From Hyphococcus sp. (GTDB lineage Bacteria > Pseudomonadota > Alphaproteobacteria > Caulobacterales > Parvularculaceae), in assembly GCF_965228385.1 (NCBI RefSeq), contig NZ_OZ245810.1:1075565-1139564 (forward strand): 64,000 nucleotides of DNA, read 5' to 3'. The notes under the pieces were generated by a model. It was not told the origin of the DNA. It saw only the letters and a list, made by a program, of their open reading frames with translations, and did no database searches. A program made the translations under genes and the position numbers. Shown one piece after another: positions 5,263-10,743 of this stretch (position 1 is the stretch's first letter; the number at the start of each line of letters is the position of its first letter).

Positions 5263-5425
5263 TTAAAGATCCGAATTGTTGGCTTCGACGTCGGTTGAAA
5301 AAATTTACTCCCCTATATCCCCTTACGACAAGTAGGTGAGTAATGGCACTATCCAGGAAAAGTGACGTTTCCCGAATCGCGCGCGGTCGAGTACCGTCTG
5401 CAACCGCGCAAATAAAGGTTCAGGT

Positions 5426-6082
5426 ATGGCCGAGGTTAAATGGCGGGCGGCTTGGCGATGGTTTGTGGACATCGCTATTGGCGAAGCCGTTTCGCGCCTT
5501 GTCAATTTCGGCGTCACAAACTGGCAATCCTTGGCCGGGGCATTCGCGGCGTTTGGTCTATCTTCAATGATAGACGGCGCTACTCTTTTTTGGATGTTCA
5601 TGGCGTTCCTTGGGGGCGGAACCTTGGTCGCCATTTGGCGAAACCAAGCGGTGCAGCGACAAATTTTGTACTCTCCGGAGCACAAGCTGCAAATTGGTCG
5701 GGCCGTTTTGGTCGCCGTTGAGCACAAACCTAACACATATCAACTAGGTATTGAGCTTTATAATGCTGGCAATTTCCCAGTATCAACAAAGGTTGATCGA
5801 ACATATGCGCAATTAGGCAAATCGACCGGCAATCCCGGTAAGCGCCTAAATGACGGCGCTGAAATTGCACCCAGACAAACCTCTGTTCTCTGGATGAGTG
5901 AGTATGAACTCGAAGAAAGAAAAAAGCCCTATAAAGGGAAAATTCACTTGGATATTAAGTATGGAAAAAAGGATAAAGAGCGGTATCCGCGCATTGTTTG
6001 GAGTCAGGTGGGTTTCCGCATCGACGGCTCGCCAGTTGTTCCCGTGAATGGAAGCCAAGTAGAACCTTTTGCGTTATCGTAA
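5426..6082 (+). CDS. Hypothetical membrane-anchored protein, IS passenger
   Basis: 218-aa ORF inside the IS, with an N-terminal hydrophobic segment and a beta-rich C-terminal part. AT-richer than the core genes. Confidence 0.7.
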   Translation: MAEVKWRAAWRWFVDIAIGEAVSRLVNFGVTNWQSLAGAFAAFGLSSMIDGATLFWMFMAFLGGGTLVAIWRNQAVQRQILYSPEHKLQIGRAVLVAVEHKPNTYQLGIELYNAGNFPVSTKVDRTYAQLGKSTGNPGKRLNDGAEIAPRQTSVLWMSEYELEERKKPYKGKIHLDIKYGKKDKERYPRIVWSQVGFRIDGSPVVPVNGSQVEPFALS

Positions 6083-6285
6083 TGACTAACACCATCAAGC
6101 AACGCTTTGACCGGCTTTTAAAGAAGATGGCGCACGGCGAACCGGCCTCGAAAACGCTTGCAAAAGGATCGGCAACATCAAGTGCGGCTGCTTCCGAAGA
6201 TTCCAGCGATACTCAAACTCACCGAGATAAACCGGCAGGTACTTCGGTGACATATGAACGTAAGTCCCGCGATAAGCGCCCTTAA
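6082..6285 (+). CDS. Small ORF (67 aa) antisense to the transposase 3' end
   Basis: ATG overlaps the passenger stop (TAATG). Begins MTNTIKQRFDRLLKKMAHGEP. Confidence 0.4.
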   Translation: MTNTIKQRFDRLLKKMAHGEPASKTLAKGSATSSAAASEDSSDTQTHRDKPAGTSVTYERKSRDKRP

Positions 6286-7021
6286 ACAGGTTCCAGAAGC
6301 CTTCGATGGTGTTCGTGTGCGTATCGCCGCGCGCGTATTCTTTTTTCGCGTGATTAATTGTTGAGTGACGGAAACCAAAATCATCAAGATTGTAGAATGC
6401 TTTTGCTTCGTCAGTGTTGATGTGCGTTCCCGGCTTAACGAAATGCTTGATGACCGGGCGAATGGCCTTGCGTCCCCGATGAGGAATGATCCACGTCATG
6501 ACGTTGCCGCCGCGCTCCGCCATGCCGAGAACGATAGACTTGTCGCCAACCGGGTCTTTTGCTCCCTTATCGACGCCGCCAATGAAAGCCTTATCGGCCT
6601 CGACAATCGGACCGCCTTTGCCGCCAAGGGGATCGGAGCCGTCAATCTCGCCCATATATTCGCGGATAAGCCGCGCCATGCGCCACGCCGTTTTGTACGT
6701 TACGCCTAGCTGGCGTTCCAATTCCTTCGCAGCGACGCCGTTGCGGCTGGCGCAGAACAGGAACATCGCGAAGAACCAAGAGTGGAGAGACGTGCGGGAC
6801 TTCTCGAAAGGCGTCCCGGCCTTGGGCGCAACCTGAAAGCCGCAATGCTCACAGGCGTACTGCTGGCGCTTTTTGATCCGGTAGTAGTGCGCCAGCTTGC
6901 CGCACCCTTGGCAGTCATGGCGCTCGCCGTACCGGGTGCGCATCAAATGCTCTAGGCAGGCGTCATCGTCCGGGAACTCATCGAGGAAGTCTTTGAAAGT
7001 AGGCAGTTTTTGCTTGGGCAT
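6095..7021 (-). CDS. IS1595-family DDE transposase
   Basis: Zn ribbon (CQGC...YACEHC), FEKSRTSL, VEAD, NTDE, HTNTIEGFW and YLGEFEYRWN motifs. Confidence 0.92.
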   Translation of the reverse strand: MPKQKLPTFKDFLDEFPDDDACLEHLMRTRYGERHDCQGCGKLAHYYRIKKRQQYACEHCGFQVAPKAGTPFEKSRTSLHSWFFAMFLFCASRNGVAAKELERQLGVTYKTAWRMARLIREYMGEIDGSDPLGGKGGPIVEADKAFIGGVDKGAKDPVGDKSIVLGMAERGGNVMTWIIPHRGRKAIRPVIKHFVKPGTHINTDEAKAFYNLDDFGFRHSTINHAKKEYARGDTHTNTIEGFWNLFKGAYRGTYVHMSPKYLPVYLGEFEYRWNLRKQPHLMLPILLQAFSRPVRRAPSSLKAGQSVA

Positions 7022-7104
7022 GGGATCGTCTCTCTCCGATGCCCTTTATGTAGGTATCCCGGCTACTTGTTTCAAGGGGATAATCTCGAATTTACTCGAC
7101 AAAA

Positions 7105-7137
7105 GAACAAAAGGAGAATAAGGAACATAAAGGGAAC
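7105..7137 (+). promoter_or_regulatory. Two tandem alphaproteobacterial LexA (SOS) boxes
   Basis: GAAC-AAAAGGA-GAAT at 7105-7119 (one mismatch) and GAAC-ATAAAGG-GAAC at 7123-7137 (perfect GAAC-N7-GAAC). Confidence 0.8.
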
Positions 7138-7156
7138 ACAATAAGGAGCACGACCT

Positions 7157-7252
7157 ATGGAAAACGAAAGCTTGCGTGACATCGTCGGACTCGGCGTACT
7201 CATCACCGTCATCGGCGCGGCGCAGTTCTGGGGCGTGCTACTGGGCGCTTGA
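7157..7252 (+). CDS. 31-aa hydrophobic peptide, SidA-like SOS division inhibitor candidate
   Basis: AAGGAG RBS at 7143-7148. Translation MENESLRDIVGLGVLITVIGAAQFWGVLLGA. Follows the LexA boxes and ends 44 nt before dnaE. Confidence 0.7.
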   Translation: MENESLRDIVGLGVLITVIGAAQFWGVLLGA

Positions 7253-7296
7253 CCGCCTGTTGAAAACCATATTTCCGGGAGGTCTTGTAGCTGGTT

Positions 7297-10200
7297 GTGA
7301 CGGCGCAGTTTGTACATCTTCATCTTCACTCAGCCTATTCCCTGGCGGAAGGCGCTATCCCGATCACGCGGCTCAAGGACCTTTGTCTGAGCGACGGAAT
7401 GCCGGCCGTCGCCGTTACGGACACGAATAATTTTTTCGGCGCGCTTGAGGCGTCTACGGTACTGGCCGGAGCCGGTATTCAGCCGATTACAGGATTGCAG
7501 CAAGCCTTTAACGCGGCGGATTTTAGTCTTCCCTTGTCGCGGGGCGGCCGCCAACCGTCACTTGTGCTGCTGGCGCAATCAGAACTGGGCTATCGAAACC
7601 TGTTGAAGATTTCGAGCCGCGCTTTTCTGGATTCCCAATCGGATGACGGTGCGTGTGCGTCGCTGGGTTGGCTGGAGGGGGCTGGCGACGGCGTGATCTG
7701 TCTGACCGGCGGTTTCGACGGCCCGGTTGACCGGCTGCTGCGCGAGAACCGTGAGGCTGAGGCCCGCGCGGCGCTGGAACGATTGAAGGCGATTTTTCCG
7801 GATCGGCTTTATGTGGAAATTCAGCGTCACGACAAGCGGGAGGAAGAAAACATAGAGGCGGGACTTCTAGATCTGGCGTATGATTTGGACCTGCCGCTTG
7901 TCGCCGCAAACGAGCCGTTTTTTCCGCGTCCGGATGACTATGAAGCGCACGACGCCCTGCTTTGTATCGCGCAGGGCGCCTATGTGCATCAGGATGACCG
8001 GCGAAAGGTGACGCCTGACCATTACTTTAAAACGGCCGATGAAATGACGGCGTTGTTTGCAGATCTTCCCGAGGCAATCGAAAATACAATCGAAATTGCA
8101 CAACGATGTGCGTACCGGCCGCGCTTTCACGATCCCATCCTGCCGCGTTTCGCCGCGCAATCGAGCGATGATCTCGAGGCTGAGGCAATGGAGCTCGAGC
8201 GTCAGGTTCGCGAAGGGTTGAAACAGCGTTTGCGCTCTGTCGAACTTGCAGAACCTGAAGACGCATATTGGGACCGGTTGAAAACAGAGCTTGAGATTAT
8301 CAACCGGATGGGATTCCCGGGCTACTTTCTCATTGTCGCCGATTTTATCAAATGGGCGAAGAAGAACGGCGTACCTGTCGGGCCGGGCCGTGGATCGGGC
8401 GCCGGCTCGCTGGTCGCCTGGTCATTGACGATCACCGATCTGGATCCCTTGCGTTTTGGCCTCCTGTTTGAGCGTTTCTTGAATCCGGAACGGATCTCCA
8501 TGCCGGACTTTGACGTCGACTTTTGTCAGTACCGGCGGGATGAAGTTATCCGTTATGTGCAGGAGAAATACGGCCGCGACCGCGTGGCGCAAATTATCAC
8601 CTTCGGAAAACTGCAGGCGCGCGCAGTCCTGCGAGATGTAGGACGCGTTTTAAACATGCCGTTCGGGCAGGTGGACCGGATATGCAAACTGGTTCCGAAT
8701 AATCCGGCTAATCCCGTCACGCTCGCCGAAGCGCTTGAGACAGAGCCGCGTCTTAAAGAACAAAGAGATGATGACGAATCAGTAGCGGCTCTCATTGAGA
8801 AAGCGCTGAAGCTTGAAGGTCTTTATCGTCATGCCTCTACCCATGCCGCCGGCGTGGTGATCGGTGACCGTCCGCTCGATGAGTTGGTGCCGCTCTATCG
8901 CGATCCCCGTTCGGACATGCCCGCGACGCAATTCAACATGAAATGGGTTGAACCCGCGGGTCTCGTAAAGTTCGATTTTCTGGGTTTGAAAACCCTTACC
9001 GTGATTGATCGCGCAGTTTCCCTCGCTGCGCAGCGAGGCGTAACGCTCGACATAAGCAAAATTCCGTTTGACGACGAAGCAACATTTAAAATGCTGGGCG
9101 AGGGCGCAGCTACAGGCGTGTTTCAGCTTGAAAGCACGGGCATGCGTTCGACTTTGCGCTCCATGAAGCCGGATACGCTCGAGGACATCATCGCGCTGGT
9201 CTCGCTTTATCGTCCCGGTCCCATGGAAAATATTCCAACCTATATCGAGCGTAAACAGGGCAAACAGGAGCCTGATTATCTCCACCCCATGCTGGAAGAG
9301 GTTTTGAAAGAAACCTACGGGGTAATCATTTATCAGGAGCAGGTGATGCAGATCGCGCAGATCCTGTCTGGTTATTCTCTTGGCGAAGCGGATTTGTTGC
9401 GCCGCGCCATGGGCAAGAAAAAGAAAGAGGAGATGGACCGGCAGCGTATCCGGTTTGTCGACGGCGCCAAGGAAAAAGGCGTAAATGCAGCAAAAGCGTC
9501 TTCAATTTTTGATCTTGTTCAGAAATTCGCCGGTTACGGGTTTAACAAGTCACACGCTGCGGCTTACGCCTACATCGCGTATCAGACCGCCTGGCTGAAA
9601 GCCAATTATCCGGCGGAGTTTCTCGCCGCTTCGATGTCGCTTGACCGGGCCAATACTGACAAGCTTGCGATCTTTTTGAAAGAGGCGCGCCGAACAGAAG
9701 TTGCAGTGTTGCCGCCGCATATTAACCATTCGCAACCTGACTTCTCGGTAAAGGACGGCGCTATTGTTTATGCGCTTTCCGCGGTGAAAAATGTCGGGGA
9801 AGGCGCTATGGCGCTCATCGCGCAGGAGCGTGAAACAAACGGGCCCTATCGCGATTTAATGGATTTCGCCGAGCGCCTTGACTTAAAACAGGTCGGCAAG
9901 AGATCGCTGGAAAATCTCGCGCGCGCGGGCGCCTTTGACGGGCTTTGCGCCTCGCGCGCCCAAAGCTTCGCCGCCGCGGATTTGTTGATCCGCACCTCCG
10001 CCGCCATGGCTGAAGAACGTAACAGCGACCAGGCGGGTCTTTTTGCGCTCGATACTGCGCCAGCCCTCGCCAAACCGAAGCTGCCAATTGTTGAACCATG
10101 GACGCCGCAAGTGCAACTCGATGAAGAACGTGCGGCGGTCGGCTTTTACTTCAGCGGCCATCCCCTTGACGATTACGAAACAGAATTGAAACGGTTAAAT

Positions 10201-10743
10201 GTCGTTGCGTATACGGAGGCGGTGCAGCGCGCGAAATCAGGCAGATCCGCCATGCAGATGGCTGGCGTTATCCGCACGGTGCGCATGCGCCGTTCGAAAA
10301 CGGGCAAGCCGTTCGCCTGGGTGGAACTCTCCGATCCAAGCGGCGAGTATGAAGTGACAATGTTCTCAGAAAGCTTGAACGCGTCACGTGAGTTGCTCGA
10401 GGCAGGCGCTACTGTGCTTGCAGTCGTTACAGTTGAGCACAGGGACGGCGATGCACGCTTTACCTGCGAATCCATGCGCAGTCTGGACGCCGCCGCCGCC
10501 GCGTCGGTTTCTCAGTTGCGCGTTTCGGTTTCGTCGTCTTCTGCGCTCGCAGGTCTGAAACGGCGTCTAGCTTCTGTAAAACCCGCCACCTCCCGGGAAA
10601 CCGGTTCTGTCGTCGTTGTCATGCGTCTGCCGGATACGGGTCGTGAAGTGGATATTGCCCTGCCGGAAGAAGCCGCGTGCACGCCGGCGATGCGCGGCGC
10701 TTTGAAAAGCCTTGAAGGCGTAACCGACGTTGAACTGATTTGA
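7297..10743 (+). CDS. dnaE: DNA polymerase III alpha subunit (replicative DnaE)
   Basis: PHP domain HLHLHSAYS, GRGSGAGS, RISMPDFDVDF, KFDFLGL, GYGFNKSHAAAY and a C-terminal OB fold; 1148 aa. Confidence 0.97.
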   Translation: MTAQFVHLHLHSAYSLAEGAIPITRLKDLCLSDGMPAVAVTDTNNFFGALEASTVLAGAGIQPITGLQQAFNAADFSLPLSRGGRQPSLVLLAQSELGYRNLLKISSRAFLDSQSDDGACASLGWLEGAGDGVICLTGGFDGPVDRLLRENREAEARAALERLKAIFPDRLYVEIQRHDKREEENIEAGLLDLAYDLDLPLVAANEPFFPRPDDYEAHDALLCIAQGAYVHQDDRRKVTPDHYFKTADEMTALFADLPEAIENTIEIAQRCAYRPRFHDPILPRFAAQSSDDLEAEAMELERQVREGLKQRLRSVELAEPEDAYWDRLKTELEIINRMGFPGYFLIVADFIKWAKKNGVPVGPGRGSGAGSLVAWSLTITDLDPLRFGLLFERFLNPERISMPDFDVDFCQYRRDEVIRYVQEKYGRDRVAQIITFGKLQARAVLRDVGRVLNMPFGQVDRICKLVPNNPANPVTLAEALETEPRLKEQRDDDESVAALIEKALKLEGLYRHASTHAAGVVIGDRPLDELVPLYRDPRSDMPATQFNMKWVEPAGLVKFDFLGLKTLTVIDRAVSLAAQRGVTLDISKIPFDDEATFKMLGEGAATGVFQLESTGMRSTLRSMKPDTLEDIIALVSLYRPGPMENIPTYIERKQGKQEPDYLHPMLEEVLKETYGVIIYQEQVMQIAQILSGYSLGEADLLRRAMGKKKKEEMDRQRIRFVDGAKEKGVNAAKASSIFDLVQKFAGYGFNKSHAAAYAYIAYQTAWLKANYPAEFLAASMSLDRANTDKLAIFLKEARRTEVAVLPPHINHSQPDFSVKDGAIVYALSAVKNVGEGAMALIAQERETNGPYRDLMDFAERLDLKQVGKRSLENLARAGAFDGLCASRAQSFAAADLLIRTSAAMAEERNSDQAGLFALDTAPALAKPKLPIVEPWTPQVQLDEERAAVGFYFSGHPLDDYETELKRLNVVAYTEAVQRAKSGRSAMQMAGVIRTVRMRRSKTGKPFAWVELSDPSGEYEVTMFSESLNASRELLEAGATVLAVVTVEHRDGDARFTCESMRSLDAAAAASVSQLRVSVSSSSALAGLKRRLASVKPATSRETGSVVVVMRLPDTGREVDIALPEEAACTPAMRGALKSLEGVTDVELI

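Follow-up and report, generated by a model that had tools for sequence, protein, structure and literature searches.

The closest described system is that of SidA in Caulobacter, a 29-aa inner-membrane protein that interacts with FtsW and FtsN by two-hybrid assay without disassembling the Z ring, and whose action is suppressed by mutations in ftsW and ftsI (PMC4211646). In published Caulobacter data (PMC12700426), sidA (ccna_02004) and dnaE (ccna_02003) are adjacent SOS genes, the sidA promoter carries two LexA boxes, and 40 min of mitomycin C produced log2 fold changes of 3.4 for sidA and 1.2 for dnaE. A second small membrane inhibitor of Caulobacter, DidA, acts on the FtsW/FtsI/FtsN subcomplex independently of the SOS response (PMC4211646). 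SidA is usually taken as a peculiarity of Caulobacter, and the curated NCBI model names SidA in that genus only. The locus that we analyzed here, in a 64,000-nt stretch of DNA from a marine Hyphococcus sp. (the whole of which we call the window), has a 31-codon ORF, P0001, in the corresponding place. Its features, in window coordinates, are as follows:

5302-5309 and 7089-7096, perfect 8-bp target duplication AATTTACT, flanking the IS1595 element
5310-7088, IS1595-family element with a 308-aa transposase and a 218-aa ORF without family match
6095-7021, opposite strand, IS1595-family transposase gene upstream of P0001, identified by family match
7096-7101, plus strand, candidate -35 hexamer TCGACA of the SOS promoter, a putative assignment within the conserved block TTtaCT.GacA
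7105-7119, plus strand, LexA box 1, GAACAAAAGGAGAAT, of the form GAAC-N7-GAAT, its GAAC and GAAT columns at least 90% conserved in 32 species
7123-7137, plus strand, LexA box 2, GAACATAAAGGGAAC, of the form GAAC-N7-GAAC and, more closely, GAACA-N6-GAACA, as at other SOS genes of this genome
7143-7148, plus strand, ribosome-binding site AAGGAG, 8 nt 5′ of the ATG at 7157
7157-7252, plus strand, 31-codon ORF P0001 with an ATG start, product MENESLRDIVGLGVLITVIGAAQFWGVLLGA as translated from the window
7253-7296, plus strand, spacer of 44 nt between the P0001 stop and dnaE, without a terminator-like hairpin
7297-10743, plus strand, dnaE, 1148 aa, GTG start, replicative DnaE equivalog NF004226

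The earlier note on this DNA had described two GAAC-N7-GAAY boxes, an AAGGAG site, a 31-aa ORF and dnaE 44 nt further on, and every one of these elements was found in place. It had also called the ORF unannotated, which is correct for the ORF list from which it was made but not for public collections: the exact 31-aa sequence is present in NCBI- and ENA-derived protein collections, where its cluster-mates are named "hypothetical protein". The product of the downstream gene scored 1483 bits against NF004226 (cut-off 1002) and 595 bits against the error-prone polymerase model, below the cut-off of 939, and by these scores the ORF at 7297-10743 is dnaE, encoding the replicative DNA polymerase III alpha subunit. 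P0001 thus stands immediately 5′ of the replicative dnaE on the same strand, which is the position of SidA. A scan of positions 6950-7450 returned no terminator-like site. Because there is no terminator-like hairpin between the ORF and dnaE, partial read-through into dnaE would fit this layout, and some dnaE transcription probably starts at the SOS promoter, on the same mRNA as the peptide gene.

We examined whether P0001 is a gene by following it through the genus. A six-frame search recovered a clear orthologue in 34 of the 36 other species genomes, the two exceptions being a genome that is 76% complete, with a weak match only, and a 280-contig assembly. Throughout the 32 Hyphococcus/Marinicaulis loci that were extracted, the ORF has a constant length of 31 codons, dnaE begins within 41-137 nt 3′ of the peptide gene in 31 of them, and GGAG-like ribosome sites occur at equal distance in the loci of relatives. 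When the 26 distinct genus sequences were aligned, 15 residues were invariant. Third codon positions vary most, with minor-allele fractions of 0.11, 0.04, and 0.24 at positions 1, 2, and 3, respectively, and selection on the amino acids is reflected in a pooled pN/pS of 0.26 and a median pairwise dN/dS of 0.19 (32 loci each). The other reading frames gave no such selection pattern and mostly contain stops. Given this fixed length and purifying selection, together with the conserved operator footprint described below, P0001 is, as judged from comparative sequence patterns, genuinely protein-coding and has an operator that is conserved as well.

The peptide has an acidic 8-residue head, MENESLRD (net charge -2), followed by one continuous hydrophobic helix, with a mean hydropathy of +2.0 over residues 9-31. 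AlphaFold2, run on the alignment, predicted a single helix over residues 2-29 with a pLDDT of 95.9. At 31 aa with one predicted helix, P0001 has the size and architecture of SidA (approximately 30 residues, one TM helix). The reading of the product as a membrane peptide with one TM helix, already made in the earlier note, is borne out by the predicted helix and its conservation, and the model supports P0001 as a conserved single-helix membrane peptide with predicted membrane insertion.

The two boxes were taken in the earlier note as LexA boxes of the alphaproteobacterial GAAC-N7-GAAC type, and the genome itself agrees with that assignment. Single GAAC-N7-GAAC boxes outside long ORFs precede lexA, the divergent uvrA/ssb pair, a dinB-like Y-family polymerase gene, and uvrD, as well as an MmcB-like repair gene (mmcB) and an SRAP peptidase gene; the form shared before the SOS genes is GAACA-N6-GAACAT. 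The bare GAAC-N7-GAAY pattern was not enriched in the window (3 found vs. 5.2 expected). The tandem pair occurs once in the whole 3.76-Mb single-contig complete genome, at this locus, and a reversed control pattern does not occur at all. In all 32 Hyphococcus/Marinicaulis species examined the tandem operator is kept in position and sequence: the footprint AGAACAAAAaGgGAATAtAGAACAAAagacGAAC is conserved with variable flanks, a conserved upstream block, TTtaCT.GacA.gAGAACAAAAaGgGAATAtAGAACAAAagacGAAC, stands between sequences that vary on either side, and the stretch of 15-39 nt from the operator block down to the ATG is variable among the 32 loci. The boxes at SOS genes, the uniqueness of the tandem within the genome, and the conserved footprint indicate that the site is more than a chance occurrence. 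The P0001 promoter thus carries predicted LexA operators, as expected of a member of the SOS regulon. A simple sigma-70 promoter scan of positions 6950-7450 called no promoter, and for this reason the promoter hexamers were assigned from the conserved footprint.

Several other sites of this type were seen in the genome. Upstream of recA (G000:C1:2093777-2094200) there are degenerate boxes only, GAAC-N7-GAAA and GAAC-N7-GTAC, whereas the boxes of lexA, uvrA/ssb, dinB, and mmcB are perfect; due to this degeneracy recA was not used as a trusted LexA site. A perfect LexA-type box precedes a C-5 cytosine DNA methyltransferase gene, and a further one is flanked by a radical-SAM gene and a 153-aa ORF without family match (G000:C1:618330-619778 and 3663266-3665040); from their boxes, these two loci are possible further members of the SOS regulon.

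The native sequence upstream of the operator has been displaced in this genome. The IS1595-family element lies 8 bp upstream of LexA box 1 and leaves both operators and the candidate -35 intact. When its flanks were joined, the reconstructed empty site was equivalent to the uninterrupted promoter region of relatives, which shows the insertion to be specific to this strain. The insertion could alter the expression of P0001. We also considered whether the boxes might belong to the IS1595 transposase, and discarded this possibility because they are conserved in IS-free relatives and the empty site matches those relatives. A second IS1595-family transposase gene (320 aa; G000:C1:552961-553957) has a perfect GAACATATCATGAAC box 34 nt 5′ of its start, which suggests possible LexA control of that gene.

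The earlier note had proposed P0001 as a positional equivalent of Caulobacter sidA, which it placed just upstream of dnaE, and had recommended a synteny check upstream of dnaE in relatives. In addition to the genus loci described above, we used the DnaE N-terminus as a query throughout the order and inspected the DNA preceding each match. This gave 56 loci outside the genus, and 37 of them have one or more LexA boxes together with a 25-31-aa membrane ORF before dnaE. The arrangement was found at 4/4 loci from the remaining genera of the Hyphococcus family (f1), at 14/14 loci of family f3, at 15/16 of f6, and at 4/12 of f4, but at 0/9 loci of f2 and at 0/1 of f5. The Caulobacter peptides of f3 were identical in an exact-sequence look-up to NCBI entries named "cell division inhibitor SidA [Caulobacter]", and they are encoded 47-65 nt 5′ of dnaE, behind two LexA boxes. 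These named loci, together with the adjacency of ccna_02004 and ccna_02003, confirm the placement of Caulobacter sidA, and the proposal of positional equivalence stands, as the SidA-named peptides occupy the same slot as P0001. Beyond the order, a class-level sample of 60 further alphaproteobacterial families included 8 with a box-linked membrane ORF before dnaE.

Loci that lack the peptide ORF were of more than one kind. At f4 loci L145 and L148-L152 (genera g21, g24, g25, and g29), a LexA box lies 43-134 nt 5′ of the replicative dnaE with no small membrane ORF between them; this layout suggests that dnaE is still under LexA control at loci without the peptide gene. In f2, dnaE lies directly 3′ of a lolD-like ABC ATPase gene without a peptide ORF (L124-L130, L159, and L163), and in three f2 genomes of one genus the short spacer before dnaE contains one box that points the other way (GTTC-N7-GTTC).

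We also compared the peptides by profile. A scan of P0001 against NCBIfam returned nothing at E ≤ 0.01. P0001 gave no match to the NCBIfam SidA equivalog NF033228 (cut-off 35 bits), even at E ≤ 10, and is not a member by that model. The model gave 59.7 and 74 bits to Caulobacter peptides and 20.5 bits, below its cut-off, to a Brevundimonas peptide; it is narrow and covers effectively the genus Caulobacter only. We built profiles from the genus only (A1), from the Hyphococcus type together with its f1/f4 relatives (A4), from family f6 (A3), from SidA (A2), and from peptides of 8 other alphaproteobacterial families picked by genomic context alone (A5). Direct comparison of the Hyphococcus type (A1 or A4) with Caulobacteraceae SidA was not significant (hhalign probability 1-2.5%). 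Comparison through intermediates gave a different outcome: A4 matched A3 with a probability of 87% (E = 3.7e-6) with all 31 columns in register, and A3 matched A2 with a probability of 96% (E = 4.5e-9). A5 matched A3 at 95%, A4 at 89%, A1 at 69%, and A2 at 51%. The A4-A3 and A3-A2 scores were reached by 0 of 150 column permutations and by 0 of 60 stricter permutations in which the Met was fixed and the polar head and the helix were shuffled separately. The linked families have in common a basic residue paired with an acidic one where the head joins the helix, a W 17 residues after the acidic residue, and a small-residue tail. Within these alignments, Caulobacteraceae SidA is the more derived branch, with its GFVW motif and a shifted tryptophan. 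As the profile links through intermediates are significant and exceed the permutation controls, we read P0001 as a diverged member of the SidA family, by links that are transitive and that join very short, compositionally biased hydrophobic peptides. The statement of the earlier note that the peptide cannot be aligned to SidA thus holds for direct alignment, while its suggestion of a new peptide family is not supported, in view of the links through intermediate families of the order and the class.

Taken together, P0001 is probably the Hyphococcus version of sidA, an SOS-induced inner-membrane division inhibitor in a conserved sidA-dnaE transcription unit. We infer the division-inhibitor function from family and context. 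In undamaged cells, LexA dimers would occupy both direct-repeat operators and so cover the promoter spacer, its -10 region, and its probable start site, keeping the unit shut. DNA damage leads to RecA-stimulated self-cleavage of LexA, which is established SOS biology, and at this locus such cleavage would free the promoter. The short unstructured leader and the strong ribosome site would then allow quick synthesis of the 31-residue peptide, which, by extension from SidA, would enter the inner membrane and hold the late divisome (FtsW/FtsI/FtsN) inactive, delaying constriction until repair. With no terminator in the way, part of the transcription would continue into dnaE and give it a modest SOS boost, as measured in Caulobacter. 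The genome of this strain has two SEDS (FtsW/RodA) genes.

The binding partner could differ from that of SidA, because the polar head and the motifs differ. It is conceivable, if rather unlikely, that the Hyphococcus branch, with its acidic head, GLGVL, invariant Q23 and W25, and no GFVW, has shifted to a target other than FtsW (FtsN, FtsI, or another SEDS/bPBP pair), or that its action extends beyond division to replication or to the supply of polymerase. This last option was considered because the linkage to dnaE is persistent and the link between LexA and dnaE is kept even without the peptide.

We consider it unlikely that P0001 is an unrelated, lineage-specific micro-gene that came to replace, or to stand beside, what lay at the LexA-dnaE promoter, without SidA ancestry and perhaps with a function unlike that of SidA. 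Such convergence would be in keeping with the failure of NF033228 and of the direct A1 and A4 comparisons, and with a profile search of 1.8 billion protein representatives, which returned close relatives only: 16 clusters (at 50% identity), each with the pattern ME[NK]xxL[RKQ]D..GLGV. It is harder to reconcile with intermediates that are linked over their full length, in register, at 87-96%, and whose scores no permutation control reached, or with what f1, f3, f4, and f6 have in common, namely the length, the acidic residue at the boundary, the helix, the strand, the distance to dnaE, and the tandem operator.

Another reading, to which we give slightly less weight and which we regard as improbable, is that of an SOS-induced toxin of the TisB/DinQ type that would depolarize the inner membrane, with growth arrest or persistence as the outcome, and would not target the divisome. 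TisB and DinQ are LexA-controlled type I toxins that depolarize the membrane; antisense RNAs serve as their antitoxins, and their leaders are structured and processed. P0001 is of the same size class, with single-helix architecture and LexA control, and its acidic head and missing GFVW would be compatible with a target other than that of SidA. Its RNA features are of a different kind. The mRNA at 7131-7310 is not unusually structured in predicted folding (z = +1.05), the ribosome site is unpaired in the predicted fold, and an Rfam scan, which covers known RNA families only, gave no antisense, sRNA, or other match at the locus. The short leader, unpaired ribosome site, unremarkable fold, and empty Rfam scan argue against both a gated toxin like tisB and an attenuator. 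In addition, position and profile links tie P0001 to SidA, which acts within the assembled divisome (PMC4211646). It is very improbable that P0001 serves as a leader ORF, with dnaE output from the SOS promoter tuned by the act of translation and not by the peptide: although dnaE follows after 44 nt that contain no terminator, and although the several f4 genera with a LexA box but no peptide ORF indicate that LexA control of dnaE exists alone, purifying selection on the amino acids, with its 15 invariant residues in 26 distinct sequences, would be unexpected if translation alone mattered, and the predicted fold has no attenuator-like structure.

This locus and its relatives indicate that a LexA operator, a membrane helix of approximately 30 residues, and dnaE together form an old and widespread, if patchy, module of the Alphaproteobacteria, with a peptide that changes quickly in evolution. 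A wider family model would therefore be warranted in annotation, lest such micro-genes be missed or named "hypothetical". Natural variants of an FtsW-directed inhibitor could also help to map the requirements for divisome binding.

Among the known systems, DidA is, likewise, a small membrane division inhibitor of Caulobacter. It is under the control of DriD and not of LexA, binds FtsN, and is encoded away from dnaE. TisB and DinQ of Escherichia coli resemble P0001 in small size, LexA regulation, and a single inner-membrane helix, which is predicted in the case of P0001; they have no sequence or positional relation to it, and neither an antisense RNA family match nor a structured leader was found at P0001 in the Rfam and folding analyses. 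The LexA-boxed micro-ORFs before dnaE in f6 and in 8 of the 60 sampled class families are nearer, with the same layout, the D8...W25 spacing of 17 positions, a similar small-residue tail (LGG or LGA), and hhalign probabilities of 87-89% against the Hyphococcus-type profile. Most of those peptides are 30-35 aa long with other heads, whereas the Hyphococcus type (MENExLRD, GLGVL) has a narrow distribution. In comparison with SidA of Caulobacter crescentus/vibrioides (CC1927, ccna_02004), both are tiny single-helix peptides (29 aa in SidA, 31 aa in P0001) encoded on the same strand, tens of nucleotides 5′ of the replicative dnaE, with two tandem alphaproteobacterial LexA boxes over the promoter (presumed for P0001) and an [R/K]-[D/E] pair where head and helix meet. 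They differ in that the head of P0001 (MENESLRD) is acidic (-2) while that of SidA (MIRVARES) is basic (+1), in that GFVW is absent from P0001, with GLGVL...AAQ.WG there instead, and in the offset between the boxes, which is 18 nt in Hyphococcus and 16-17 nt in Caulobacter. P0001 is an extension of the known SidA system and not a new kind of system.
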